This document shows, piece by piece, positions 6,274 through 54,027 of a stretch of DNA of 64,000 bases; positions within the stretch are counted from its first letter, which is position 1; every line of letters begins with the position of its first letter. A program made the position numbers and the translations under genes. Under the pieces are notes generated by a model that worked only from the letters and a program-made list of their open reading frames with translations, was not told the origin of the DNA and ran no database searches. The DNA lies in the UHGV virus genome UHGV-0229283, one strand, 5' to 3'. The stretch comes from a virus.

Positions 6274-6678
6274 TTACAGAGATTCCAGCTCTTTCAGGAT
6301 CTCTTCACGAGACATCGCTGCATCTTTCTCGTTATCCTTCTCTGCCAGCAGGTCCAGAAGTTTACGCTTACGCTCAACCTTCTCTTTCGCTGCCTGGCGA
6401 TCCGCGATCTCCGCTTTACGCACCGAGATGATGTACTTCAGGATATCCAGCTTCAGGTTTGCTTCGCCATTTACAGCACTGGCCTCGACAACGAAACTTT
6501 CTTCAGCAGATGCTTTCACATCACGGTTAGCCAGTTTGGAAACCGTATCCAGGCTGGTATTACCAGTCATCGGCAGATCCCACAGATCTTCTGTGGTCAG
6601 TAGACCTTTCGGGCTTGCAAAACGCAGTTTTTTACGGGTAGCCAGTTCGAACAGGGTCGGTGCGTTGATGATAGCCAT
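6274..6678 (-). CDS. hypothetical protein (134 aa), charged coiled-coil C-terminus
   Basis: Co-oriented ORF with a KE-rich C-terminal helix. Confidence 0.45.
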   Translation of the reverse strand: MAIINAPTLFELATRKKLRFASPKGLLTTEDLWDLPMTGNTSLDTVSKLANRDVKASAEESFVVEASAVNGEANLKLDILKYIISVRKAEIADRQAAKEKVERKRKLLDLLAEKDNEKDAAMSREEILKELESL

Positions 6679-6695
6679 TGTTTTGTTTCTCCTCT

Positions 6696-6914
6696 TTAGT
6701 TTTTTAAGATGCCGCGCTCTTCAAGAATCGCGACTAATTGTGCTTCTGTTGCCCGGTAAGTGAAGGAGTGCAACATCTTCTTTGCAGTAATGTATGCACA
6801 CCCGAACTCTTTACACACTCTTTTGTAAGGATTCTCAACCTCTGGGGAAGAGAACCCTTCCAGACATGCAACAAGTCTATCAGTTACCGGGGTTGGTTGC
6901 AACCCCGTTTTCAT
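6696..6914 (-). CDS. hypothetical protein (72 aa)
   Basis: Its start is coupled to the stop of the 676 aa gene. Confidence 0.35.
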   Translation of the reverse strand: MKTGLQPTPVTDRLVACLEGFSSPEVENPYKRVCKEFGCAYITAKKMLHSFTYRATEAQLVAILEERGILKN

Positions 6915-8944
6915 CAGAATTTAATCTTCAGGGTGCGGTTGAAAGAACCAGTAACCTTCACAACCAACTCGTTACGCTGGGTAGACGAGAAGCCCAGGCC
7001 GCTCAGTTGATCAGTGGAGTGTTCAGCTTTGAGCTTGGAACCCAACACTTCGAACACTTTACGATGCTCATGCAGCTCGTCACGCAGATACTCATTATAG
7101 AAGCCACGAGTATCGTCAGGGTTAATGCAACCTTCCAGCATAAAGAAGTAGTGTTTGTTACCTTTGGTCTGACCATCCCAGAAGTTAGGAGAATTCAGCA
7201 CCAGAGAAACTTTCTGGAAGGTCTCGGTAGAGACGCCCCATACTTCTTTCGATTGCTTAGTATGCCCGATGCTGTCTACAATTTCAACACCTTTCGCACG
7301 AGAATACTTAAAGGTTACAACGGTCTGGCTCTTGCTATTACCCAAAGCTTGCGGGTATGCAAAGTTGAACACTTGGCCTTTGTATTCCATCTGTACTTCG
7401 AAGCCAACGCGATCAGTCATGCGCTTATTATAGTTGTTAACAACAACCTTGTAAACACCTTCCGTGATATTACGCTCATTTTCCCACGTAACGTTCTCAA
7501 CCGGATGGTGTGCGTCTGACTTGCCATAGGCATTCATATCCACATCCAGCGTACCCGTTGAGCGACCACGTTTGTTACCGAAGTAAATTTGACCGCCACC
7601 AGGCTCGAATACGTGCAGGTCGAGGTCATCACTGTTGTACCAGGACAACGAAACACGCAGGTCACCAGTCACGCTACCGCCAGCGGCTTTCACACGCTCC
7701 TTGATGGAGTCAGTTACTTCGCCATTATACGACCAGGAGAAGCCGTTATCCCATTTGAACAGGTTAGGAGCACCTGCGTTTGCCGGGGCAACCAGGCTCA
7801 TCAGGTTCGGTGTCAGACGACCTTCAACCAGCGCTTCGATAGTGTCCGCTTTCGGCAGAACGTTATTGATGAAATCCTCAATGCTGATCTCTTCTACTTT
7901 CGACAGTGACTTCGGCGCGTTTTTGGTTGACGCTGCCAGTTGCTCGAATACGTTCATCTGGGCCTTTGCAGAACGGTCAGCAAACAACACGTTGTTGATC
8001 GTCAGGTCAGAGGTCACCGCAAAGCGACGTGCCAGAGATTCAGTCAAGCCGAGGGCTTCAACCTTCTCTTGTGCTGCCTTGATCATGCCCGGAGTTACCA
8101 GAGCTGTAGTACGCTTGTAGTTGGTCCCTGAGACTTTGTCTTCAAAGGACTTCACTGCGGCTTCAAGATCAATACCTTCTGCCAGATCGCTCATCAGTGT
8201 ACCGATGACATCATTACGGAAGCGGCCCAGTTTACCCAGCGTTTCACTTTGTTTCCAGCAGAAGTTCATTCGCTGATCTTCCGGCGTTTTGTCGTATGCA
8301 CGTTTCGCCTTAATAAAGGCAGCAACAATGTGCTTTTTCTCATCACCACGGTACAGAGAGCCTTGGTTGATCAGGTCCATTACCGTTTCGGCAGAGTCCA
8401 TATCGATATCTTTCAGAGAACGTGCCAGCACAGTTGCGTTGTCACGGTACTCACCCAGGGCAGAAGGGATATCTTCACCACGTTTAACCAGTTCGCGAGG
8501 CAGGGCCTGATGGAAGTGGGTCCAGGTTTTGGTTTTCCCATTTTCCAGGAGAACTACGTTGCTCTCAGTACCAACGCGGCCTTCGAAGTGGAAGAAGCGA
8601 TCGCGGATCTCGGCGCTTTCAACACGCGCTTTCATCGCATCGGCAACAACTTGGTAGTAACCACCAACTTTAACGTCCCAAATAGAGACCAGCTTGCCGT
8701 TGTGAATCGCGACTACTCGGCCCAGAGTACGGATGTAGCTCTTGCAGCAGTTACAGTCATATTCACGGCGCTCTTTATACATCAGATTGGTGCCTTCCGG
8801 GAAAGAGTCGAGGTACAGATCGTACAGTTCATCTTTCGGTACATCGACCGTGTAAAGCGCACCCAGCGCTTGCATGACAGCGAACTGAGCTTTCAGAGCT
8901 TTTACGAAGTCAGCGTAAGGTACGGTTTCATATTTTGCGGTCAT
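6914..8944 (-). CDS. large hypothetical protein (676 aa) with DUF2135-like C-terminal domain
   Basis: Long intact ORF. The C-terminal LRVSLSWYNSDDLDLHVFEPGG...GTLDVDMNAYG resembles the DLDLhV motif of DUF2135/YfaP-type domains (recalled from memory). Confidence 0.55.
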   Translation of the reverse strand: MTAKYETVPYADFVKALKAQFAVMQALGALYTVDVPKDELYDLYLDSFPEGTNLMYKERREYDCNCCKSYIRTLGRVVAIHNGKLVSIWDVKVGGYYQVVADAMKARVESAEIRDRFFHFEGRVGTESNVVLLENGKTKTWTHFHQALPRELVKRGEDIPSALGEYRDNATVLARSLKDIDMDSAETVMDLINQGSLYRGDEKKHIVAAFIKAKRAYDKTPEDQRMNFCWKQSETLGKLGRFRNDVIGTLMSDLAEGIDLEAAVKSFEDKVSGTNYKRTTALVTPGMIKAAQEKVEALGLTESLARRFAVTSDLTINNVLFADRSAKAQMNVFEQLAASTKNAPKSLSKVEEISIEDFINNVLPKADTIEALVEGRLTPNLMSLVAPANAGAPNLFKWDNGFSWSYNGEVTDSIKERVKAAGGSVTGDLRVSLSWYNSDDLDLHVFEPGGGQIYFGNKRGRSTGTLDVDMNAYGKSDAHHPVENVTWENERNITEGVYKVVVNNYNKRMTDRVGFEVQMEYKGQVFNFAYPQALGNSKSQTVVTFKYSRAKGVEIVDSIGHTKQSKEVWGVSTETFQKVSLVLNSPNFWDGQTKGNKHYFFMLEGCINPDDTRGFYNEYLRDELHEHRKVFEVLGSKLKAEHSTDQLSGLGFSSTQRNELVVKVTGSFNRTLKIKF

Positions 8945-10003: not shown

Positions 10004-10121
10004 GGGACGCTACCACCATGCCCGTTCTCTTATGAACTGCTGCATGTTTCCATGCAGAGCAGACTATATCTTCACCCACACTTGGGGTGTCCACCGCTTC
10101 GGGCCGCTTGGCCCTACTCCG

Positions 10122-10523
10122 TTACCGGATAGTCGTTGGGATTTTACCTCTTGCCAAATACCACTCTTCACCACTACAGTAAAGATTGTTGCAAACAGCA
10201 TGTTCTACATTAGATGCACGGCATGATAACTCTATATTTTCCCAGCAATTATTCAATGTGTTTGCATCTAGGTGGTTGACCTCTTCCTCTTCAAGAAGGT
10301 CTCTACCGATCTTTGCCGCACAAATCAACCTGTGCAACAAATAGTGTTTGCCATTTTTCAAACAGATACGCTGATAAAATTTCTTTCCCTTACCTTTGTG
10401 TAGATAGGGCTTCAACTTTCTTAGTTTTCCACGATTGCTGGAGTATATATTACCTTCGTGGTCACAAAAGTATCCGTTTGATATTGGTATTTTAGCCAAG
10501 GTACTTATCTGCTGATTGTCCAT
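10122..10523 (-). CDS. HNH homing endonuclease (HNH_3 type) inside the DNA polymerase gene
   Basis: NGYFCDHEGNIYSS...KLKP......Y..I.L...GK..LHRLI is the I-HmuI-like HNH_3 signature. The ORF lies between the two polymerase fragments. Confidence 0.7.
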   Translation of the reverse strand: MDNQQISTLAKIPISNGYFCDHEGNIYSSNRGKLRKLKPYLHKGKGKKFYQRICLKNGKHYLLHRLICAAKIGRDLLEEEEVNHLDANTLNNCWENIELSCRASNVEHAVCNNLYCSGEEWYLARGKIPTTIR

Positions 10524-10671
10524 TTCATCCTCCTAAAAGGAGAAATCATACATAAATTTTTCAAACTGTCAAGCCCATCCTCGCGGATCACTTTGTAGTA
10601 TTTATGTCTTTAGGATTTCCCAGCAATTCAATGGATGCACCTTATAAATTACTTCATAAGGGGGCTATCAA

Positions 10672-12711
10672 TTAACCGTAGGTTACCCCTTTACCACCGT
10701 TACGCGTTACCAGAGTACCAGAAGCTTTGGTGTATGCCTCGGCGTTTCGTGCGTGGGCATCTCCACTTTCCATGATACGGAGGTATTCACCGCCATCGAA
10801 CTCGTAAGCACCCCAAGCAGCAATCATACCTTCGAGGTTAGAACCATCGATACCGACTTGGTAATATTCATCGGTCACACCCCAGAGACCACGCATCTCT
10901 TTACCCAACAACACCTTAGGATCTGGCTTAGGCATGTTTGCACAAATGGTGTGCTTACAACGCCCGGTGTTAGTGATACCAGAGAAACGAGCTGGAAGTT
11001 TTCCATCAATCGCCAGGCGAGGATGATTCAACAGCCCTGTATCGTTTTTATCCTCGTCAATAGGGTCGAGAACAGAACGACGGTTACGTAATGACAGCCA
11101 CTTAACAATCTGTTTAGCCAAGTGAACATCGATAACTTCAAGGTTAGGACACAGCTTGCCAAAGTTATCCTTCAACTGTGGTGAAGTCGGCAGTTGACGA
11201 GCTTTGCGTCTGAACTTCTTGAAGATCTCCTCGTAAACACGATCAGAACCATGACGATGGTCGAACTTGTTTTCCGAGATATTGAACTTTGCGTCACTAT
11301 TATTTAAGTGCTCAAGAATCAGAGATTTATACTCGGACTCTCCAAGTTCTTCGATGTACTTACGCACCAGACCATCAACCTCCGCATCATCGCGGGTCTT
11401 TTTGAACTGGTCTTTCGTCACATCTTTAACACGCCAGAGCGTTGGTTTCCATCCCGCATCGCGGATCAGGTACTTCTTGATGTCGTCCTGGTTCGAGATC
11501 TTCATCGGAACCATCAGGTCTGGCATCTTTCCAGCACGAAGATCGGCAATTGCCTTTTCCATTAGGTCTGGTGGCAATGGGACAAGGGTATTCTCTTTCT
11601 TTATCTGGCTTCTAATGAAGTCTGGCATCGCTGCCGGGTCTTCAACACCATTCTGGATACAGTATCTTTCCCCTGCTGCACTTACATCACCGTTACCTTT
11701 AAACGCCGTCTTCGGTGGACCTTTGAATTCCAGCGCTTCACGATTAACTGGATATCCCAGCTTGTATTCTAACCAATTCCACCCGTGATGGGAAATTCTT
11801 CCTGCACCATCAAAAGGATTAGCAGGGAATTTTGGCTGTTGAGACTTCGTCATCTCTTTGAGCGGGAGTTGAGGTTCTACTTCTTCCTCAATCTCTTTCA
11901 TCATTACATCAATACGGTCTCTCAGCTTTTCAGCTTCATGCTTATTGAATGGAACACCCTGAATTTCTTGCTCAATCATCAGGTAATCAGTCAACATACG
12001 GCGGCGTAGCGCGTTCTTCCAGTTGATCTGCCGCATCCCTTCCGGCTTATCTTTGTACATGAACTGCTTGTCATCAGGCCAGCGAGCACCTGTAGACTCA
12101 TCGATCAGGGATTGCCATGTCAATTCGTTGATTAAAACGTCTTCCCAGACACGGTTAACGTATTCCCACAATGGTTGGTTACGCCAGTCATCGATCTGAA
12201 CTTTCTTGTTTGCTACGCGGTAGCCCCAGGCCAACAGGCCATGAGGACCTACACGGTCTCGCTTCCCGGTTACCGGGTTAAGAACAGAGTCAGGGCAACC
12301 GTTAGGTAATGGGCGGTCAGGATAAAGCACACGGCTCATAGAGAGGGTGTCGTAGAGATTTACCTGTGTATCCCCAATCGTCCCCATGCACTTCGGGTCT
12401 TTGAACATATCATATTCAATGCCCGATAACTTCTTCCACAGACGCAGGTCATAGCCAAAAAGGTTGTGAATCGCAATGCCGCGAGGCTCCGTTTGCAACC
12501 AAGTGTACAGCTCGTCATAAGAAAGAATCCTAAGGTTAGCCTCTGTCTTGCTACGAGCGTAAGCTACTGCGCTTTCATATTCCGGGTGGTTTGGGTCAAG
12601 GAAGAGGACCCAATTGTTAACACCAAATTCTTTCAGTAGTGTGCAGTGGTACTTTGTAACTTCATCAAGCAGCCCATCTGCTTCATTATCCCCTATAAAA
12701 AGACCTCTCAT
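10672..12711 (-). CDS. DNA polymerase (family A), N-terminal fragment/exon 1 (3'-5' exo plus palm motifs A and B)
   Basis: N-terminal LFIGDNEADGL is exo motif I-like. IDGSNLEGM corresponds to motif A (DYSQIELR). The C-terminus RNGGKGVTYG corresponds to the start of motif B (RRxAKxxNFG). Confidence 0.8.
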   Translation of the reverse strand: MRGLFIGDNEADGLLDEVTKYHCTLLKEFGVNNWVLFLDPNHPEYESAVAYARSKTEANLRILSYDELYTWLQTEPRGIAIHNLFGYDLRLWKKLSGIEYDMFKDPKCMGTIGDTQVNLYDTLSMSRVLYPDRPLPNGCPDSVLNPVTGKRDRVGPHGLLAWGYRVANKKVQIDDWRNQPLWEYVNRVWEDVLINELTWQSLIDESTGARWPDDKQFMYKDKPEGMRQINWKNALRRRMLTDYLMIEQEIQGVPFNKHEAEKLRDRIDVMMKEIEEEVEPQLPLKEMTKSQQPKFPANPFDGAGRISHHGWNWLEYKLGYPVNREALEFKGPPKTAFKGNGDVSAAGERYCIQNGVEDPAAMPDFIRSQIKKENTLVPLPPDLMEKAIADLRAGKMPDLMVPMKISNQDDIKKYLIRDAGWKPTLWRVKDVTKDQFKKTRDDAEVDGLVRKYIEELGESEYKSLILEHLNNSDAKFNISENKFDHRHGSDRVYEEIFKKFRRKARQLPTSPQLKDNFGKLCPNLEVIDVHLAKQIVKWLSLRNRRSVLDPIDEDKNDTGLLNHPRLAIDGKLPARFSGITNTGRCKHTICANMPKPDPKVLLGKEMRGLWGVTDEYYQVGIDGSNLEGMIAAWGAYEFDGGEYLRIMESGDAHARNAEAYTKASGTLVTRNGGKGVTYG

Positions 12712-23985: not shown

Positions 23986-25300
23986 TGCGGGGCTAAGATG
24001 CTATAATTTTACTTATGGGTCAACCCCTTATTAAGGATATTTTTTGCAGCATTAATGTCTGCATTCTCAGTATGACCGCAAGAAATACATAAAAATTTAG
24101 CTTGTGTTTTCCTGTTTTCTTTTGATACATACCCACATCCAGAGCACGTCTGAGAGGTATATGCTGGATTAACAATCATTAACTCACTTCCGTACCTGAT
24201 CGTTTTGTAAGCTAACTGCATACGTACCGAGTATAGACTCATATTTAGAATCTCTCGGTTAAGCCCTGTTTTAGCCTTCACATTTTTACCAGGCTGTTCA
24301 ATCGTTCCTTTTGACGATTTCGTCATATTGGAAACTTTCAAATCTTCCAGAACAATTTTGTAGGATTTTGTAGCCAACTTTTTAGTAAGTTTGTGGCAGG
24401 CGTCTTGGCGAATACTCCCTTGTTTGGACTTGCGTACAGTGATCATTTCGCCAAGCTTTTTGTATCTTGCGCTGCCTTTCTGGCATTTGGCTTGCTTACG
24501 TTGAAGAATACGAATACGTTCTTCAAGAGCCTTTAACGATTCTTTAGGATACTCCTCATGCCATGCTGTTTCACTATCTGAATCATAGCATGTTGCATAC
24601 TGTGCAACACCTAAGTCAACACCAACACACATTTCCCTTTTATTAGAGATCTGATAATAATCTTCGTCAGGTATTTCAAAGATGAAAGCAACATACCAGT
24701 CACCAGCAGTTTTGCTGAACGTGGTATTCATAAGTTTCCCATTCAGGATACGTGCAGGTATCTTATCTCCCAGTTTCATCTTTCCAAGTCTGTTGTGGAT
24801 GATGTAAGCCCCAACGTCATCAAGATTCTTTTCCTTTTTGAAGTCTGTATTGCTTAATTTAAAACCTTTCCTGCGATGCTTTGATTGAAACTTGGGTCTG
24901 CCTCCAAGCTTTTTGAAGCATCGCTGCCATGCCTCTTTGAGGTCATACTTTATAGCAAGCTGGCCAACACTACCGGGTATCCCATTTAACCATGTGTGGA
25001 TTCCTGAGCCTAACATTACTCCAGATTTTGTTGGCTTTTTAAAACCGAGAGGGTATTTACCTTGGTTAAAAAATTTATCGTATTCATTTATTTTTGCCAA
25101 TTTCCATTTTTCATCAGGAGATAGGGTTTCTTGGTCTATGAAACATAACCCTAATGCATAATTAAAAGCATAACGTCTGGCGTTGCTCCAATGAAGAAGA
25201 GTGCTGTTTTGGCGATTATTTGTACCAACTTTTGTTTTAAAACCTACCATCATGATAATCATCTACCTGCGCTGTTAAAGTTCATTCCGACAGTACCACA
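23975..25300 (-). mobile_element. IS200/IS605-family tnpB-only element (boundaries approximate)
   Basis: A TnpB gene with no tnpA. A stable hairpin (AGCCCCGCAATGGGGCT) sits at its 3' end where the omega RNA / right end would lie. Exact ends were not determined. Confidence 0.4.
24009..25262 (-). CDS. tnpB: TnpB (IS605 OrfB-family RNA-guided endonuclease)
   Basis: 417 aa. RuvC-I VGVDLGV, RuvC-II IVLEDLKVSNM, zinc finger CSGCG...CISCGH and RuvC-III NADINAAKNI are all present. Confidence 0.85.
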   Translation of the reverse strand: MIIMMVGFKTKVGTNNRQNSTLLHWSNARRYAFNYALGLCFIDQETLSPDEKWKLAKINEYDKFFNQGKYPLGFKKPTKSGVMLGSGIHTWLNGIPGSVGQLAIKYDLKEAWQRCFKKLGGRPKFQSKHRRKGFKLSNTDFKKEKNLDDVGAYIIHNRLGKMKLGDKIPARILNGKLMNTTFSKTAGDWYVAFIFEIPDEDYYQISNKREMCVGVDLGVAQYATCYDSDSETAWHEEYPKESLKALEERIRILQRKQAKCQKGSARYKKLGEMITVRKSKQGSIRQDACHKLTKKLATKSYKIVLEDLKVSNMTKSSKGTIEQPGKNVKAKTGLNREILNMSLYSVRMQLAYKTIRYGSELMIVNPAYTSQTCSGCGYVSKENRKTQAKFLCISCGHTENADINAAKNILNKGLTHK

Positions 25301-33047: not shown

Positions 33048-33959
33048 ATGTTTGATGTTAAAAAGAAATTTACCAACAGCGAGATTAAAAGTCTAGAAGA
33101 ACGGTATCATAAAAAGGTAGAACGCACAAAGAAAAGGGGTTTAGAATTCTCCTTGACCCTTGATGACTGGTTCATGATGGGAGAAAAGCTTTTGGGCATT
33201 GGCCCGTGCGACTACACCAATATGAACTTTAGCACGAGGTCGGTACATGGCGAAAAAGACCCATTGTATCCGACAGTTGAGCGCATTGACGATAAGAAAG
33301 GTTATGTTCGTGGAAATGTATGCGTTGTCTTGCAAAGAGCCAATGAATTGAAAGATCGTTTGGTTGACAAGAAAACAGCCATCACTATAATTGATCCGCT
33401 AGACCGTGAGATTGTGCAGGCTATGATGCTGAATATGTCTAAAGACCATCTCGAAAAACTGAAAACTAAATATATCCCACAACAGGAGACAAAAATGGAC
33501 ATGAAAGAACACATGGCAGAAGTAGAAAAGAATCACAACACCGACTACAAAGAGCTTGCTGAACACGAACACAAACAACCGCCTGCGGCAGAAGAAACCA
33601 CTGCACCTGTGGAAGTGGAGGCTGAACCGAAAGAAGCTATCAGTGTTGCACTGCCAGAAGATGTAGCTGTTGCGCTTGCCTATGCAAATTACTGCAATAC
33701 TTTTGCAAATGTCGGTATGAAAGTAAGTGTGACATATGCTCAGTTCAAGGCCAAATATATTCGCAGCACCTGCGCAATGACCGGAGAGAAGCTTACTGGT
33801 GAGCCTAAATCCATTCTGATTCTGGATCTTAACATTGGCTTTGCCAAAGATAATTTCATCATCGTTTCCAAGAAAATGGAAACGGCTATGACTCAACTGA
33901 TGATCCAGACGGGCCTTAGCCTGCCAAAAGTTACAGCAATGCTGAACAAGGTGGTGTAA
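33048..33959 (+). CDS. hypothetical protein (303 aa)
   Basis: First plus-strand gene after the strand switch. GGAG RBS. Confidence 0.55.
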   Translation: MFDVKKKFTNSEIKSLEERYHKKVERTKKRGLEFSLTLDDWFMMGEKLLGIGPCDYTNMNFSTRSVHGEKDPLYPTVERIDDKKGYVRGNVCVVLQRANELKDRLVDKKTAITIIDPLDREIVQAMMLNMSKDHLEKLKTKYIPQQETKMDMKEHMAEVEKNHNTDYKELAEHEHKQPPAAEETTAPVEVEAEPKEAISVALPEDVAVALAYANYCNTFANVGMKVSVTYAQFKAKYIRSTCAMTGEKLTGEPKSILILDLNIGFAKDNFIIVSKKMETAMTQLMIQTGLSLPKVTAMLNKVV

Positions 33960-36334: not shown

Positions 36335-36725
36335 GAAAGTTGTCCACAATTTAGATTTTGAGGTTTACTTGATGGGGCTTGGTTGTTGTCTCATTGTGAA
36401 CTTTGAAGTACAAAATGGTCATGATCTGACTGGCTATAGGTATGACATCTTCTGTAACAGGAAGATTGTCGAGGTATATGGTGCCGGAGAAGGTGGTGAG
36501 AGGGAGATTATCATTTCCAGGGATTTCACGGATGATCCCCTCCATATCACAGAAGAAGAGCTAAGTCTGGTCGAAGTTATGATGACACACTTGTCTCCAT
36601 TCGAGAGAAGTTTGCACAAACTTGGATGTGATCTGGCTGTTCTTCACTACAATGATGCATCTCAAGAGTATGCCCAAGAGGTTGTTAAAAATCACTTGAA
36701 TAATTATCTGGAGGTAGAAACATGA
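36318..36725 (+). CDS. hypothetical protein (135 aa)
   Basis: Co-oriented and coupled ORF. Confidence 0.45.
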   Translation: MSTLNKKVVHNLDFEVYLMGLGCCLIVNFEVQNGHDLTGYRYDIFCNRKIVEVYGAGEGGEREIIISRDFTDDPLHITEEELSLVEVMMTHLSPFERSLHKLGCDLAVLHYNDASQEYAQEVVKNHLNNYLEVET

Positions 36726-37018
36726 GAATCTCTAAGAGTTTCAGTGTTTTATGCTCTTATGGGATGATATCCAATCTGAAGTTATCTTCAACGGATATCC
36801 GCATTTACCTGTACTTGAAATTCAGGTGGCAGTTCTTTCACAGCAAAGGCTCAGAGTTTTGTGAATCAACCACCACTATCTCTGAAGAGGTTGGTGTTTC
36901 TGAAAGGACTGTTCGTCGGTCTATGGAGAAATTAGAAGAGTTGGGATACCTAGAGGTAGTCAACCGACCAGGAAAAACCAGCCTGTATATCACCAAAGAT
37001 GAGGTGGCTATTAAGTAA
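36722..37018 (+). CDS. winged-helix DNA-binding protein (replication-initiator/regulator-like)
   Basis: ISEEVGVSERTVRRSMEKLEELGYLEV is HTH-like. Confidence 0.45.
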   Translation: MRISKSFSVLCSYGMISNLKLSSTDIRIYLYLKFRWQFFHSKGSEFCESTTTISEEVGVSERTVRRSMEKLEELGYLEVVNRPGKTSLYITKDEVAIK

Positions 37019-37241
37019 CCAACCCCGGACACTGGTGACCGGACACCCAGGACATGGATGACCTACGACATAATAAAGAATAAAACAATAAAGATAATAA
37101 AACCTAAAACATAGATCTTTATAAAAAGATCTTGATCTATGGTTTAGTTAGTGTATAGTTAGTTTCAAGAGGAAGTGATGAATCACTTCAGATGTGTGGA
37201 AGTGCAATGTGTTCGGAGCCACGGGCGACAGGAGCTTCTAA

Positions 37242-39898: not shown

Positions 39899-40735
39899 TT
39901 GATTACAGGACGCTACACGATGACTACTATTTTAAACACTCTCGAACTTATCCCCCATAACAAGGTTAGTTATGATTTTCCTAACGTGCGCGGCGACCTT
40001 GAAAGGCTTTACCTTGATGCAGTATATGCCCTTGGTGGTGTAGAATTCTCTACTGACGAGACTGATGAGAGGACTTTCAATCAGGCCAAGGCCAGCGTGG
40101 AAAGTGTGCTTGATGACCTTAAGCAATACGCTACAGGTTCAGAGGTTGAAGGGCTTCTCGATTATGCAAAAGACACTGAACGTGCCTTTGTTGAAAGAGG
40201 TGAGTATGTACTCAATGCCATGCGGCGCATGAACAAGTTCAGTAAGGATATCTTAGATATCGACAATACCTGGAACAGAGAAGACATTGCAAATGGTGTT
40301 GCCTGGATCGCAGAGCAACTGGGTGAGATGTTTGATGGAGGCTCCCATATACGGTACATGATGCAGAATCGAGGATGGCGAGACCTGTATCTTGATTACC
40401 TCGTGAACCTTGTCGGTAACCCGGTAGTAGAGGTGCTTGCACATTATTCTTCTGCTCATGATTTGGTGTATGGTGTCGATGGTCGTATCAAGATTTCTGA
40501 TAATACCGTTACACTTATGAATGGCCCTACTTCCTTGGTCCTTTCTCCTATTCCCGGTGATATGCGTATTGTTTACACAGTCCCAGGAAAGACAGAACGG
40601 TTCCTGATTTCTGTATTGAGCACATTTTTCATTGACATTTGTAATCCGACTCCAGATGAGATTCAAATGTATGAGATTTCTACAGGTACAACCTATGATA
40701 TCCGTAAATGGAAGGAGATATTTGGAGGTAGATGA
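39899..40735 (+). CDS. hypothetical protein (278 aa)
   Basis: Co-oriented ORF. Confidence 0.5.
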   Translation: MITGRYTMTTILNTLELIPHNKVSYDFPNVRGDLERLYLDAVYALGGVEFSTDETDERTFNQAKASVESVLDDLKQYATGSEVEGLLDYAKDTERAFVERGEYVLNAMRRMNKFSKDILDIDNTWNREDIANGVAWIAEQLGEMFDGGSHIRYMMQNRGWRDLYLDYLVNLVGNPVVEVLAHYSSAHDLVYGVDGRIKISDNTVTLMNGPTSLVLSPIPGDMRIVYTVPGKTERFLISVLSTFFIDICNPTPDEIQMYEISTGTTYDIRKWKEIFGGR

Positions 40736-41310
40736 TGAATTTAAATTCTGAGATGGAATCAATACCGTCTACAAAACATCGAGGTAAGGTCTGTGGTATA
40801 GGGGTTAACGATGCGCCTTTTACCACCAGTATGCGTAAAGATGGTAAGATGTATCACCACACAGCCTATAAAGATTGGCATAACATGATAAATAGGTGTT
40901 ATAGTGGAAAGTACCCATCTTATCGGGGGGTTGTTGTATCTGAAGAATGGCACCACTTCATGGATTTTTATCTTTGGTGGCAGATGAATTATCATGATGG
41001 TTTTCAACTTGATAAGGACCTCTTTGGTGATAAGTTAAAATACAGCCCTGCAACATGCAGATACATACCTTTGTGGATGAACTGTTCTTTACATGGTGGT
41101 GGTAAACCTGGTGTACATTACCACAAAGCCTCTGGCCTTTATCGCTCAGGAAAGGATGGGATATTTGGTACATTTGAGGATGAGGATTCTGCTTGGAAAG
41201 TTTGGCGTAATAATTTTGTAAATACAAAAGATTATGATATTTGGAACAGCCTGGATATTTCAATCAGGGAGAGATTTTGTAAATTGAAAGACATTTGTAT
41301 GATATTTTAA
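40732..41310 (+). CDS. AP2-like DNA-binding domain protein, paralog 3
   Basis: KVCGIGVNDAPF...YKDWHNMINRCYSGKYPSYRGVVVSEEWHHFMDFYLWW. Confidence 0.5.
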   Translation: MMNLNSEMESIPSTKHRGKVCGIGVNDAPFTTSMRKDGKMYHHTAYKDWHNMINRCYSGKYPSYRGVVVSEEWHHFMDFYLWWQMNYHDGFQLDKDLFGDKLKYSPATCRYIPLWMNCSLHGGGKPGVHYHKASGLYRSGKDGIFGTFEDEDSAWKVWRNNFVNTKDYDIWNSLDISIRERFCKLKDICMIF

Positions 41311-41548
41311 TTTTACATGATATTTTAAAATTCGAAATGGTTTTCAAAATCGTTTTTGAAACGGATTTCATCTTCCCTGCAAATTTTTAAATAAAGAGTT
41401 TTGGGAGTAGGTTATCTCAAACCTTTGTGGAAGCTATGTCGAAAAATGATGCACAAGTGTATGATTGCTATAGGTATCTTGGCATCAAGATTGGACATTT
41501 ATCTCAAATAGGCGAAAAAGATATCTCAAATTTTCAGGTAGAAAACTC

Positions 41549-41760
41549 TGGGTTCTCGATCGACTTTTCGTTTTCAAAAACGTATTTGCTCTCACTATCA
41601 AAAAATTTTTCTCTATATCAACCGGGTTCTCGATCGGTTTTTCAAAATCGAGATCGTAAATGTTTTTTCTCTAGAAAAAATTTTTCGGCCCGGTTCTCGA
41701 TCGAGATCTCAATTTCCAGATCGTATTTGTTTTCTTACGCGAAAAAATTTTTTAGGGGTA
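41549..41760. repeat. three tandem direct repeats of about 70 bp (GGTTCTCGATCG...CGTAWWTG...AAAAAATTTTT)
   Basis: Units begin at 41549, 41622 and 41688. Each starts with GGTTCTCGATCG and ends with an A6T5 tract. They sit in an AT-rich, palindrome-rich intergenic zone. Confidence 0.6.
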
Positions 41761-42131
41761 TCGCTCAGTATATCACATGAAAATCAGAAGTCAATATTTA
41801 AATTTTTTGTTGAATGAGAAGCATTCTTATTTAGTTATTTGAATGATAATCATTCTCATTTGCTGAATGACAGGCACCCCCGGTGTTTTGTACTCCGGTT
41901 TCAATGTTCCCGCTATGTGTATAATATAGGATACACGGCCCCAGGTTGCAAGCGTCTTTACAATTCTTTACAAATAGACTTTAGGCGAGCTACCGGCGAT
42001 CCACCTTCCAACCAGGTCTCCGCGCCTGGTATGTTAGCCCCGCCTTTCCGCCGTGGGGTGGCGTCTCTTCTCCTGTCTGATAAATATAACCCATGTCGGG
42101 GCCGTTTGCAAGCCCCGCGATAAAATATTTT

Positions 42132-42317
42132 TTACTCCCAGGAGTCCGCGAGCACTTCCCCATTTTCCGCTACAATTCTCACCCTGGTAAATCCTGCATT
42201 ATACATTTTCAACGCGAAGGGTAAAGGCACGATCCTAACCTGGGGCGCTGCGCTTTCCGTCTCCCAGGTGGAAAGGGTGACCATTGTCTCACTCGTTGTT
42301 ACTTTTGCGTTTTCCAT
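42132..42317 (-). CDS. small hypothetical protein (61 aa), divergently transcribed from the small-gene cluster
   Basis: It carries the same AAAGGTAAACGAAATG initiation region as the plus-strand cluster, but on the minus strand. Confidence 0.45.
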   Translation of the reverse strand: MENAKVTTSETMVTLSTWETESAAPQVRIVPLPFALKMYNAGFTRVRIVAENGEVLADSWE

Positions 42318-42420
42318 TTCGTTTACCTTTATTTGTGGGCGTCCTTATATAGTACACTAACCAGGCCTGGGCGCAAGCCCACACGAACAAAAATATTTTT
42401 AATTTATTTTCATCCAGGGG

Positions 42421-42449
42421 ATTGACGGCAATTAGTAAAGCGCTTACTA
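42421..42449 (+). promoter_or_regulatory. sigma70-like promoter (TTGACG, 17 bp, TACTAT) for the first cluster gene
   Basis: Hexamers and spacing read directly from the sequence. Confidence 0.5.
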
Positions 42450-42497
42450 TCCATCTCATCAGGTCCCCCGTCGCCCACACTTAAAAGGTAAAATAGA

Positions 42498-42791
42498 ATG
42501 AAAATTTCCGCTAACAAACAATTGATCGACACTGTAAAAAATTATATCCGCCACCCGTATGAGTTCGGTGGGTATCCGAAAATTTTAATTATGCGTGATG
42601 GTGGTTGCCTTTGCTCAAAGTGTACGCATGAAAATTTTACCCGCCTATTGGAAGAATTAAGGGATGAGAGTGATCTGGCATGGATGCCAGCCGATGTGGG
42701 TATTTTCTGGGAAGGTGCGGATTTCCCATGTGGTAATTGCCAGACTCCGATCCCTAGTGCATATGGAGATCCCGAAGAAGAAGAAGAATAA
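42498..42791 (+). CDS. hypothetical Cys-containing protein with acidic tail (97 aa)
   Basis: AAAAGGTAAAATAGAATG initiation region. CLCSKC...CGNC cysteines. DPEEEEE C-terminus. Confidence 0.55.
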   Translation: MKISANKQLIDTVKNYIRHPYEFGGYPKILIMRDGGCLCSKCTHENFTRLLEELRDESDLAWMPADVGIFWEGADFPCGNCQTPIPSAYGDPEEEEE

Positions 42792-42799
42792 ATATTTAA

Positions 42800-42829
42800 T
42801 TGACACGGGCCAGTGTCCGGGGTTACAAT
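42800..42829 (+). promoter_or_regulatory. promoter with -10 (TACAAT) inside hairpin CCGGGGTTACAATCCCCGG
   Basis: TTGACA, then 17 bp, then TTACAAT. A perfect inverted repeat flanks the -10. Confidence 0.45.
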
Positions 42830-42879
42830 CCCCGGACCTGACAATCAAAACAAAAAACTACACAAATCGAGGTTACAAC

Positions 42880-43047
42880 ATGAAAAACATTTCTTTTACT
42901 ACCCGTGACCAGGCCCGCGCTTTTGCCCGTAATGTTAACAGCAAGGTAACCACGGCGGCGCGTTTACGTCAACCTGTTAAAGATGGCGCCGGGCAATGGG
43001 TTATCCCTGGGATCAACCACGGCAAAACCTTATCCCTGGCTAAATAA
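42880..43047 (+). CDS. small hypothetical protein (55 aa)
   Basis: ATG after CGAGGTTACAAC. The longer track ORF starts upstream inside the promoter. Confidence 0.45.
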   Translation: MKNISFTTRDQARAFARNVNSKVTTAARLRQPVKDGAGQWVIPGINHGKTLSLAK

Positions 43048-51730: not shown

Positions 51731-51994
51731 ATGACAAACATGATTTACACTGTAAGCAAAACAAGCCTTTTACGCGCTACCCTGCTGGCTTGCCTTATTG
51801 CTTTAGTGTCTAATACGTGTTTTAACTGGCTGGCTTGCCTGGTAACGACGGAAACAATGGCGCAAGGGTTTAACACCATGATCGACGTTTTACAATTGAC
51901 GTTTTACACTCTGATTAAACTTAATCGCTTTAATCGTTTAGACCGTTATGATCTCCCTTTCTTGATCGCTGGCCTGCTGGCTATCGCGCTGTAA
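51731..51994 (+). CDS. small membrane protein (87 aa, 2-3 TM)
   Basis: LLRATLLACLIALVSNTCF and LPFLIAGLLAIAL are hydrophobic segments. Confidence 0.45.
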   Translation: MTNMIYTVSKTSLLRATLLACLIALVSNTCFNWLACLVTTETMAQGFNTMIDVLQLTFYTLIKLNRFNRLDRYDLPFLIAGLLAIAL

Positions 51995-52019
51995 GGCTCC
52001 ACTACTCCCCAAAAATAAT

Positions 52020-52048
52020 GCCGGGCAACTCCCGGCTTTTGTGTTTTT
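52020..52048 (+). terminator. rho-independent terminator ending the small-gene cluster
   Basis: GCCGGGCAACTCCCGGC followed by TTTTGTGTTTTT. Confidence 0.5.
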
Positions 52049-52407
52049 ATATGTTAGGTTTTATCAATCAATAATCAAAAAGTGATAGGTGACTAAAACC
52101 TGCATAATCGAGATCTCCAGGCGGTAACCCACTAGCCAGGGTAAGAGATAAAGCCTCTCAGAATGGCGCATATTGCGCTTAAAAGGGTATGGCCCTACCT
52201 AACAACCCCAACAATTAATAACGCATGTTATTAACTGAATAAAACATGCATTTTTAAGCATTATGTATGCATAGTGTGAGAATCACTCTCAAATGATAAC
52301 TTTTATCATCTAACCTATTGTGTGAACTGGTTTTATTGAGCATAAAAATAAAATCTTGTCAAATAAAAATCGTTCGCGTAATCGTGGGGAGTGGCGCGAG
52401 CGTAGCG

Positions 52408-52613
52408 AGCGACACAATAACACTAGGGTAACTCAAATGCGAACAAATCGCATTCTCGTTCGCGTTATCGTGGCTCGTAGACGCTACGATCAAGGACGAA
52501 ATTATTACAGTGTATTATCATTACATCCGTAATGATTAGCAATGGAACTTTATCACATCGCCACGATAACACCGATCAACTATCGTTGATCGCCCTAGTG
52601 TTATTGTGTCGCT
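52408..52613. repeat. 21 bp perfect inverted repeat pair (AGCGACACAATAACACTAGGG / CCCTAGTGTTATTGTGTCGCT) flanking a 164 bp palindrome-rich core
   Basis: The left arm is 52408..52428 and the right arm is 52593..52613. The core contains internal palindromes (GATCAACTATCGTTGATC, CATTACATCCGTAATG, GCGAACAAATCGCATTCTCGTTCGC). Direct and inverted GCGTWATCGTGG copies lie around it. Confidence 0.6.
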
Positions 52614-53739
52614 GGTGATGGTAACACCCCGTTATTATTATGTGATTAAATGAAATTTAATGGTTGACAAATAGCAATAAATCACTTGCCAATGTGGGCC
52701 TATGGCCTATGGAAAGGCCTGTTTTTGAGCATGGAAGAAGTGTAAACTGTCAAGTGTTTTTATTATCGAAAATTCCTATCAATGCCTTGCGTGGCAATAA
52801 AGAAAATAGTTACTTATTGTAACTATTTCAATGCTTTAGCATTGCCGGGTATCCGGTCCGTAACGGGCTTATGTGAGAATAGTTATCATTGGGGAAATGC
52901 TCAAAGTATAGCTGTGTGTTAAACACGATTCTCTCTCCTTGTCAAGCTTTTATTTATAAATTTACAAAATATTTATATTTGCGGAATGATTCTCATTTCG
53001 AAATTGAATTCGAAATCGAAATAATAATGATTCTCATTCGTCATCTCATTCACAAAACAACCCTAAAACATGAATAATCACACATGAAACTATCACCACA
53101 GTAACAGTCACACCATGTAATGACCTGAAGCGGCTGGCCTATGCGTCACACTGGTAACATTGGGGCATTATTAGCTTGCTATGTGTTGTTGGTCAGTGCG
53201 TATAACGTGTTTTATGTTAAATGGTGTAATTCATATAAATATAAGCTTGTCAATAGCAAATCGTGCTCTAAGCTGGCAAACCATATGCTTGCTATATGTC
53301 ACATTTGATTATTATTAGTTTCGGCAAGTAACTATCATGCCTGAAGAGGCCCCGAGGAACCGGGAACCGGATCGACCTTGCCCATGATATTTTGTAAAGA
53401 TCCGTAAAAATATTTGACGCCCGGAGCTGTCCGTCTAGCACCGCAGATGGTGAGAACAGGATATTTTTCGGCAAGTGATATTTTCGGCAGGGGGCCTGTT
53501 TTGATTTCCCCACGGGGGAAGGGGTGGTTATACGGGGAAAACAGGGGCCTGTTTACGGTATCGACATATCGGGGAGTCCCTTCAGATTGTGTGTTAATGA
53601 AATGAGTACGTAGTACAATGAGAATCATTCTCATTTACAGACAACCGGGCAGGTCCGGTGATTGTTTCGTGCAGCCTCAGCACCTGTTGCTGTGTGCAGG
53701 ATAACAGGGTTGCCTATTCAGGTCAACCCCTTCGTGCGG

Positions 53740-54027
53740 TCACCACTGATGAAATCTTTTGTGCTCCCATCTCGCCCGGCTGATGATACACCACATAGCC
53801 TGTTCATCATAGAAACCAAGCGCTTTAAGCTCTTGCTTCACATCGCTCAACTGTGCGTATAAATAAAGCTTTTTACTACCTTGACGCAGGAGGATAGCTG
53901 GTACAAGTGTCTTTGCATAGTCCAACAACACCTCTATTCTCTGCCTTTTCCCTTCAGATTTCTTGCGTGGGCAATTCCTGATGTGTGCCAGTTTTGCTGG
54001 CGCTTTTACTACTTTGTTGAAAGCCAT
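53740..54027 (-). CDS. hypothetical basic protein (95 aa)
   Basis: First minus-strand gene after the noncoding zone. Confidence 0.4.
   Translation of the reverse strand: MAFNKVVKAPAKLAHIRNCPRKKSEGKRQRIEVLLDYAKTLVPAILLRQGSKKLYLYAQLSDVKQELKALGFYDEQAMWCIISRARWEHKRFHQW

Follow-up and report, generated by a model that had tools for sequence, protein, structure and literature searches.

A gene-free gap of 1.2 kb (41311-42497) in the genome of a Klebsiella phage carries three direct repeats that, judged by their conservation, are a functional non-coding cis element under strong selection at the nucleotide level. The gap lies within a block of small plus-strand early genes, starting at 33048, in UHGV virus genome UHGV-0229283, of which a stretch of 64,000 nucleotides (64 kb; the window) was analysed. 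The window comes from a phage of the genus Mydovirus (Vequintavirinae, rV5-like), and KNP2, BIS47, Mydo and further phages match its interval 41293-42500 at 96-97% identity. We propose that the repeats form a nucleoprotein array acting at the level of DNA, most likely a transcription-activated origin of replication of the kind found in T7 and at T4 oriF, a reading to which we assign a probability of roughly one in three. Protein binding at the repeats, leftward transcription into them and any role in replication are what we infer from the features described below.

Each of the three units combines the same elements in the same order. The window has exactly three copies of box A (GGTTCTCGATCG), at 41551, 41625 and 41692 and always on the plus strand; box B (CGTAwwTG) follows exactly 30 nt later, and the unit then runs into an A6T5 tract (AAAAAATTTTT) that is found in the window only at 41600, 41675 and 41742, compared to 0.27 expected occurrences. 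The units are as follows.

41549-41621, plus strand: repeat unit 1, with box A at 41551-41562, box B (CGTATTTG) at 41581-41588 and A6T5 at 41600-41610.
41622-41688, plus strand: repeat unit 2, with box A at 41625-41636, box B (CGTAAATG) at 41655-41662 and A6T5 at 41675-41685.
41689-41753, plus strand: repeat unit 3, with box A at 41692-41703 inside a 12-bp palindrome (TCTCGATCGAGA), box B (CGTATTTG) at 41722-41729 and A6T6 at 41742-41753.

A repeat search returned three copies of 64 nt, spaced 74 and 67 nt apart and 67-77% identical. Tandem Repeats Finder (TRF) detected just the two best copies, at 77%, which indicates diverged repeats and no clean tandem array. The initial annotation of this DNA had placed the repeat starts at 41549, 41622 and 41688 and had ended each unit in A6T5; the repeats are real, their starts including 2-4 bases that flank box A, and the A6T5 tract is present at all three. 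The AT-rich character that it had ascribed to the zone is also confirmed, both by base composition (a GC content of 0.353 in 41001-42000 compared to about 0.44 in the rest of the window) and by duplex stability, as the least stable of all 500-bp stretches in the window starts at 41186 and lies 3.6 standard deviations from the mean. This minimum falls partly within the 3' end of an HNH gene specific to the window phage; in the KNP2 genome, the array zone ranks as the second least stable 500-bp duplex. No conserved sigma70 promoter was found inside the units, and ARAGORN found no tRNA-like units.

The gap is conserved in position and gene-free, at 0.8-1.5 kb, in Seunavirus, Certrevirus, Vequintavirus, the phi92-like and phAPEC8-like Stephanstirmvirinae and one Vibrio phage. 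Among 29 distinct units from 10 phages, the distance from box A, (G)GTwCTCGATC, to box B, CGTATT, is always exactly 30 nt. Units at the same array position in different genera are more alike than units within one phage, and the array is orthologous across four genera. It has an identity of 66-86% between Mydovirus and Seunavirus, compared to 34-66% for the upstream gene and 12-54% for the downstream genes, and conservation extends beyond the two boxes to nearly all 200 nt. The spacing of the units is 74-76 and 67 in Mydovirus and Seunavirus, 78 and 63 in Certrevirus, and 65 and 74 in rV5. The phi92-like phage ALITA has three 77-nt units, spaced 67 and 75 bp apart, of unrelated sequence. Because the spacing is kept even with unrelated units, the comparison identifies three sites over a span of about 140 bp as an architectural constant.

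The array is also unique. In KNP2 (126.5 sequenced kb of 146 kb, with 19.7 kb of Ns), box A-N19-box B occurs only three times, on one strand, and all three occurrences are in the array. A blastn search of the array against plasmids and E. coli genomes gave no match, and a scan of 596 Gb of bacterial genomes returned 75 isolated single matches, approximately the number due to chance, and no arrays; an origin of the repeats as borrowed host or plasmid sequence was rejected on these grounds. A literature search found no account of the array, of a replication origin or of Fur boxes in these phages.

A constant distance of three helical turns between two boxes, with sequence in between that is free to change, is the signature of a protein on duplex DNA. 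To the same effect, RNAalifold was run on ten orthologous arrays in both strands (225 nt) and gave consensus structures of -6.2 kcal/mol, with 8 pairs and 0 compensatory changes, for the plus strand and of -12.3 kcal/mol, with a covariation term of -0.06, for the minus strand. Most of the predicted pairing falls on the invariant CGATCG cores, which are self-complementary, and no structure supported by covariation was obtained on either strand. From this and from the fixed 30-bp spacing of the boxes around a free interior, we infer that the array works as DNA and not as a structured RNA. The alternative is that the units are repeated modules of a long leftward non-coding RNA from the promoters P0, P1 and P2 described below, or of the 3' untranslated region of the upstream operon, and serve as a protein sponge or primer RNA. 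The promoters around the array make its transcription probable, in one direction or in both; its conservation is not limited to the boxes; single sequences fold better than shuffled ones (z of -2.7 and -3.5); and a relative, PhiTE, does use a tandem-repeat non-coding RNA. Even so, we regard an RNA function as rather unlikely, given the weak consensus structures, the near-zero covariation and the DNA-binding-like spacing of the boxes. The unit-specific hairpins of the window phage are, as read from the alignment, not retained across genera, and Rfam offers no match: an E-value scan of 40500-43000 was empty, and a scan of the whole window at the gathering thresholds found only a group I intron elsewhere.

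A protein product is even harder to reconcile with the data. The only open reading frame (ORF) of at least 40 aa in the interval, 41427-41780 (117 aa), is open in the window phage and matches phrog_25933, a family of similar ORF calls, and could on that basis be taken for a genuine protein with internal repeats. It reads the three units in frames 1, 0 and 1, however, and the spacing between units 1 and 2 is 74, 75 or 76 nt depending on the genus, which shifts the reading frame; in rV5 the array has stops in all six frames, and the ORF has no Pfam match. Two of the three plus-strand frames are open across the array because the sequence is T-rich and without stop codons, and the phrog_25933 match merely mirrors the same ORF calls in other genomes. 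The view of the initial annotation that this ORF is implausible therefore holds, and a real protein here is hardly conceivable.

In the mechanism that we favour, a sequence-specific protein, probably encoded by the phage, would contact each unit at two fixed patches, box A and box B, and by binding three units 67-75 bp apart would gather about 140 bp into one complex. The array would be the common target of three tandem leftward promoters of the host sigma70 type, P2, P1 and P0, and the leftward path from P1 and P2 would cross predicted boxes for host Fur. It would serve as the cis-acting core of a transcription-activated origin, which we consider its most likely function since the least stable duplex coincides here with the common target of the leftward promoters. 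Also in favour of an origin are the uniqueness of the array in the genome, its direct repeats and its presence across two subfamilies, as well as the direction of the promoters (consensus matches) into AT-rich DNA and the genes for a T7-type replisome: the left 33 kb of the window holds, on the minus strand, replication and early genes that include a family A DNA polymerase, a T7-gp4-like primase-helicase, a Dda-like helicase and rIIA/rIIB. The features around the array, from left to right, are the following.

41294-41329, plus strand: two 18-nt direct repeats containing TGATATTTTAA (a GATATTT pair; the GATATTTTAA duplication), from a repeat search.
41334-41369, either strand: A/T-rich repeats of 12-nt period (GAAATGGTTTTC family), forming an imperfect palindrome in the window phage (TRF period 12, 2.2 copies).
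41412-41530, plus strand: spacer with three TTATCTCAAA-type motifs (41412, 41499 and 41521), from a motif scan.
41767-41794, minus strand: P0, TTGACT-16-TATACT with TGn and an A/T-rich upstream element, directed leftward into unit 3 (a sigma70 consensus match only).
41813-41831 and 41842-41860, either strand: two Fur-box-type palindromes, from a motif scan.
41862-41951, minus strand: conserved leader (CAGAATGAC.GGCA..CCGGTG.TTGT) and P1, TTGCAA-17-TATATT (41951-41923; consensus match).
41957-41971, minus strand: direct repeat GTAAA-N5-GTAAA, which precedes the P1 -35 hexamer by 5 nt, from a motif scan.
41990-42075, plus strand: conserved GC-rich block that closes with a terminator-like hairpin (42032-42063) and U-rich tail, from the alignment.
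42083-42111, minus strand: P2, TTGCAA-17-TATATT, leftward, antisense over the GC-rich block and toward the array (consensus match).
42422-42450, plus strand: rightward early promoter, TTGACG-17-TACTAT, for the downstream genes, at the right edge of the gap (consensus match).

The positions of P0, P1 and P2 are conserved and their hexamers drift within the consensus; transcription from them is predicted. At the position of P0, Seunavirus has TTGACA-18-GAAAAT (SSE121) or GAGAAT (FENT2), both with TGn. P1 is kept in Seunavirus (TTGATC-16-TATTAT), CR3 and Vibrio phage 11895-B1 (TTGCAA-16-TATTAT); in rV5 and ALITA it was read by eye and lies below the scan threshold. Equivalents of P2 are TTGACA-17-TATACT (ALITA and ESCO5), TTGACG-17-CATAAT (CR3) and TTGACA-18-TATATT (FENT2). 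The stretch of the leader and P1 is the most widely conserved DNA of the gap, and a second copy of this module is found at 53617-53730. These phages use the host RNA polymerase and sigma70-like early promoters, and the rightward promoter at 42422-42450 matches the early-promoter consensus of Certrevirus (PMC7344957).

Fur-box motifs are strongly enriched, with 8 matches in the window compared to 0.04 expected, and are confined to two non-coding zones (41813-41860, and 52277, 52984, 53020 and 53617). Against the 19-bp 9-1-9 consensus AATGAGAATCATTCTCATT, the predicted sites match at 19/19 positions for the copy at 53617, 18/19 at 41842 and 17/19 at 41813. The experimentally derived Fur consensus of Xanthomonas, AATGAgAATcATTctCATT, has the same form as the palindromes of the window, and AATGAGAATCATTCTCATT is literally equal to the Xanthomonas Fur-box consensus (PMC1790865). 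Between 1 and 5 copies lie at the equivalent position of the gap across the lineages read, in two subfamilies, and in KNP2 the boxes are found only in the array gap and the second non-coding zone (0 expected). From their sequence, the phage Fur boxes could make transcription depend on iron or could titrate the Fur protein of the host.

The GTAAA-N5-GTAAA repeat occurs three times in the window (41957-41971 on the minus strand; 53394 and 50028 on the plus strand) compared to 0.26 expected, and the copy beside P1 is conserved in 14/14 sequences. Two of the copies, one in each of the special zones, sit 5 nt upstream of a TTG... -35 hexamer. The motif is what we take to be the CpxR-box consensus; on the plus strand it could alternatively be the single-stranded seed of a small RNA (sRNA). 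Next to it, the GC-rich block at 41990-42075 is 76-84% conserved. The G.U pairs of its hairpin (two invariant, two more in 13/14 and 8/14 sequences) and one switch between G.U and G-C fit the plus strand only, so that, with its U-rich tail, the block looks like the 3' end of a plus-strand RNA, with P2 transcription running antisense across it in the manner of an sRNA/antisense pair. Rfam has no family for the putative RNA of 41990-42111.

In Raoultella phage Ro1 (L023), a free-standing HNH gene (197 aa, minus strand; 6315-7060, equivalent to about 42000) forms a 740-bp insertion that splits the most conserved core of the GC-rich block (CTGCCGGCGAT^...^CCAGCGATCCACC). With an HNH gene inserted in its middle, the block need not be contiguous. 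A self-splicing intron was considered for this insertion and rejected, as the HNH gene is free-standing and Rfam does not identify an intron; at the junction there is a weak, sub-threshold Rfam match to Proteo-phage-1 (21.6 bits, E 0.46).

At the left edge of the gap, close GATATTT pairs are found at three places in the window (41294-41329, 41236/41254 and 53460/53477) compared to 0.02 expected, and the motif occurs 2-3 times at this edge in Mydo, Seunavirus, CR3 and rV5. The duplication of GATATTTTAA that had been pointed out here is present at 41294-41329, as is the upstream palindrome, in the form of an imperfect 16-nt inverted repeat (41334-41349/41354-41369, 81% complementary); in phage Mydo the GAAATGGTTTTC-family repeats are three direct 12-mers. 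The TTATCTCAAA-type motifs, which have counterparts in the spacers of FENT2, ESCO5 and CR3, are not significant by their number alone (9 window-wide compared to 7.3 expected).

Several observations weigh against an origin at the array. The initial annotation had looked to an inflection in GC skew to locate the origin and had counted a skew minimum that maps elsewhere toward a refutation. Formally this is the outcome: the cumulative minima of the window (about 33 kb) and of KNP2 (about 20 and 83 kb) all fall at divergent gene blocks, and the gap forms a plateau. We consider the skew uninformative here because it tracks transcription in this phage group; it does so in rV5, the description of which left the origin undefined and showed the gap only as a 'non-coding' box (PMC3606486). 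Neither DnaA boxes nor IHF sites were found in the array. Box A holds an invariant GATC, and the densest 100-bp window of GATC in the 64 kb falls in the array, but other regions match this density and it was rejected as a hallmark of an origin. The A/T tracts of the array show no significant helical phasing and no global curvature signal. No binder emerged from the adjacent 278-aa gene, which has no Pfam, NCBIfam or PDB-sequence match and hits only a PHROG of unknown function; its product has 28 relatives by homology search and an AlphaFold model with a predicted local distance difference test (pLDDT) score of 49, and the gene is 17-33% identical between genera compared to 66-86% for the array. 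As an initiator or binder it was rejected on account of the uninformative matches, the low-confidence model and its faster divergence. Finally, the nearby Fur boxes, CpxR-like box and sRNA-like block with its terminator make transcriptional regulation the theme of the region, and, as described next, a cassette elsewhere in the window is a better candidate for an origin of the classical type. A lone DnaA-box match, TTATACACA, lies at 41916-41924 (minus strand) over the -10 region and start of P1; Mydovirus and CR3 have it, and Seunavirus, rV5 and the phi92-like phages do not.

A classical iteron origin, as had been suggested for this zone, would need an initiator. Direct repeats do adjoin AT-rich DNA, and 4.5 kb upstream of the array lies an annotated 'replication initiation protein' (36722-37018), a 98-aa winged helix-turn-helix (wHTH) protein (HTH_36/PF13730) that is the sole initiator-like protein. 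It covers only the N-terminal 100 of 337 positions of its PHROG profile, and tblastn finds it in 68 records, compared to 362 in which part of the gap is matched; a scan of viral contigs for distant relatives gave identical copies only. Near-identical arrays go with two wHTH alleles that are 37% identical (the allele of the window, shared by Mydo, KB57 and KpS8, compared to that of KNP2, BIS47 and Ro1), and the same split is seen within Seunavirus. The allele swap runs about 75 nt past the stop codon and takes with it direct repeats of its own, two copies of CCGGACAC in the window, within 37019-37095, and two of ATGCAAATTTTGC in KNP2; an A/T-rich tract follows, and the sequences become identical again at a GATC-rich inverted repeat. 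In the window, 36722-37165 thus comprises the wHTH gene, the two CCGGACAC copies (plus GGACAT), a 45-nt A-rich tract that is the least stable stretch of 50-100 nt in the window, and a 14-nt inverted repeat with three GATC sites. Because the alleles co-vary with their own repeats at 37019-37165 and not with the array, this comparison indicates that the wHTH protein has its cognate sites beside its own gene and is not the binder of the array. The cassette at 37019-37165 is plausibly a better candidate than the array for a classical iteron origin, or it may be autoregulatory. The units of the array, moreover, are bipartite, 64-76 bp long and spaced 74 and 67 bp apart, and do not resemble phased repeats of 17-22 bp. 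An iteron origin bound by this wHTH protein is therefore very improbable. What stands of the original origin proposal is a set of non-coding, unique direct repeats in the least stable DNA; the classical iteron type does not survive the unit size, the behaviour of the wHTH alleles and the lack of DnaA and IHF sites.

The array may instead control transcription, as a regulator site, roadblock or termination zone that insulates where rightward early transcription meets leftward transcription from P0, P1 and P2. The initial annotation had named a multi-site regulator array as its alternative, and this remains a live though unlikely rival to an origin. A variant of it would make the array a distant upstream control region for the sRNA-like locus that integrates iron (Fur) and envelope-stress (CpxR-like) signals. 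Such functions are consistent with the position of the array between convergent transcription units and with surroundings that hold 4-5 conserved promoters, Fur boxes, a CpxR-like box at a -35 hexamer and a plus-strand terminator. In Mydovirus and Seunavirus, each unit ends on the plus strand in a U6C/GA6 hairpin followed by a U-run; Certrevirus and rV5 are without the hairpin and U-run and yet keep box A and box B. In the zone at 51994-53740 the leader and promoter modules, the Fur boxes and the GATATTT pair all recur, but it carries these regulatory modules without an array. Operators, furthermore, usually recur, whereas this motif is unique in the genome, and a 70-bp spacing, direct orientation and a site downstream of the leftward promoters are atypical of them. 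Another kind of unique cis site is improbable: a packaging (pac, TerS) site like R3-R2-R1 of lambda cosB or P1 pac, a strong gyrase site, or a centromere array of the partition type. Such a site would account for three direct sites occurring once per genome; the clustering of GATC recalls P1 pac, a span of some 140 bp is reminiscent of a wrapped complex, and the relative PhiTE is terminally redundant and circularly permuted, implying headful packaging (PMC3475682). The large terminase gene of KNP2, however, is about 70 kb from the array, the array lies among early genes, and nothing hints at partition functions in a virulent phage.

The transcription-activated origin that we prefer has partial counterparts in known systems. 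The primary origin of T7 consists of the tandem promoters phi1.1A and phi1.1B followed by an AT-rich region. The gap likewise has tandem promoters leading into AT-rich, non-coding DNA of the early region, in a phage with a gp4-like primase-helicase and a family A polymerase, but the promoters are of the host sigma70 type and not those of a phage RNA polymerase, the target carries three bipartite repeats of 70 bp that are conserved, and Fur boxes separate promoters and target. T4 oriF(uvsY) and oriG(34) are R-loop origins, in which MotA-dependent middle promoters precede a DNA unwinding element that is about 50 bp long and lacks conserved repeats. The order of promoter and downstream unwinding element is shared, and the array, T-rich on the plus strand, is predicted to yield a purine-rich leftward RNA; sigma70-like promoters and conserved repeats set it apart from the MotA-dependent promoters and repeat-less element of T4. 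Among iteron origins, lambda ori has four 19-bp iterons, and pSC101 has three iterons together with DnaA, IHF and AT-rich 13-mers. Direct repeats beside AT-rich DNA, three in number as in pSC101, are the similarity; the bipartite unit of 64-76 bp, the lack of a co-varying initiator and the absence of DnaA and IHF sites from the array are the differences.

As with RNA II and RNA I of ColE1, a transcript from P2 would begin upstream of the array, at a distance of about 320-530 nt, and its initial 100 nt or so (up to about 140) are predicted to be antisense to a plus-strand structured RNA with its own terminator. Unlike in ColE1, copy control would be of no obvious use to a virulent phage, and Ro1 tolerates the 740-bp HNH insertion in the block. 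F sopC is built of 43-bp repeats and lambda cosB of three sites, R3-R2-R1. The array resembles both in having several direct units at one unique locus, three of them as in cosB; it differs in that no ParB/SopB or TerS partner was identified, in its distance from the terminase gene and in belonging to a virulent phage. The Certrevirus PhiTE carries a pseudo-ToxI, a mimic of a type III antitoxin, made of near-identical 36-nt repeats that expand by slippage (PMC3475682). That locus is also a tandem non-coding repeat in an rV5-like phage, but the units of the array are 64-76 nt long, 67-77% alike and each orthologously conserved. ToxI mimicry was rejected, as the similarity of 22/36 positions compares to 21/36 in a shuffle and unit length and identity do not fit.

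Other observations concern the neighbourhood of the gap and the rest of the window. The HNH homing endonuclease gene at 40732-41310 is an insertion at the left junction of the gap; most Mydoviruses are without it, and SSE121 has an HNH gene at the same junction, which suggests that this junction is a homing hotspot adjoining conserved non-coding DNA. On the right, a small ORF of 61 aa (42132-42317, minus strand; annotated as gp055 in Mydo) is preceded by a ribosome-binding site and a promoter-like TTGCGC-16-TACTAT (about 42385); 42100-42450 is 50-76% conserved in some Seunaviruses and replaced in FENT2. The second gene-poor zone, 51994-53740, lies between convergent gene blocks and contains the second least stable 500-bp duplex of the window; the modules that it shares with the gap are the GATATTT pair at 53460/53477, the Fur boxes and the leader with a minus-strand promoter at 53617-53730, without the three-unit array. 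The group I intron (RF00028, 66 bits, E 1.6e-14) occupies 10040-10683 (minus strand), directly beside the DNA polymerase ORF at 10672-12711. A 417-aa ORF at 24009-25262 (minus strand) matches transposase PHROGs (phrog_506, E 3e-72) in this virulent phage genome.

A more elaborate form of the origin proposal, which we consider a long shot, treats the entire gap as the RNA-primed origin of a virulent phage, gated by signals from its host. Transcripts started at P2 and P1, with CpxR as a possible activator, would cross Fur boxes that act as an iron-dependent gate, the plus-strand antisense RNA would oppose the leftward transcripts in a ColE1-like manner, and replication would start at the array of about 140 bp. 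If this were true, lytic DNA replication would be coupled to the iron and envelope status of the host, through an architecture common to Vequintavirinae and Stephanstirmvirinae. The gap is the most conserved DNA of its neighbourhood, it places consensus Fur boxes in strictly virulent phages, and the spacing of its array outlasts complete sequence turnover between subfamilies. The analysis also corrects spurious ORF calls that have spread through PHROGs and RefSeq. Both the rV5-like and the phi92-like phages are broad-host-range candidates for therapy, and in them the array offers a short and precise experimental target whether it is an origin, a regulatory hub or a sponge.

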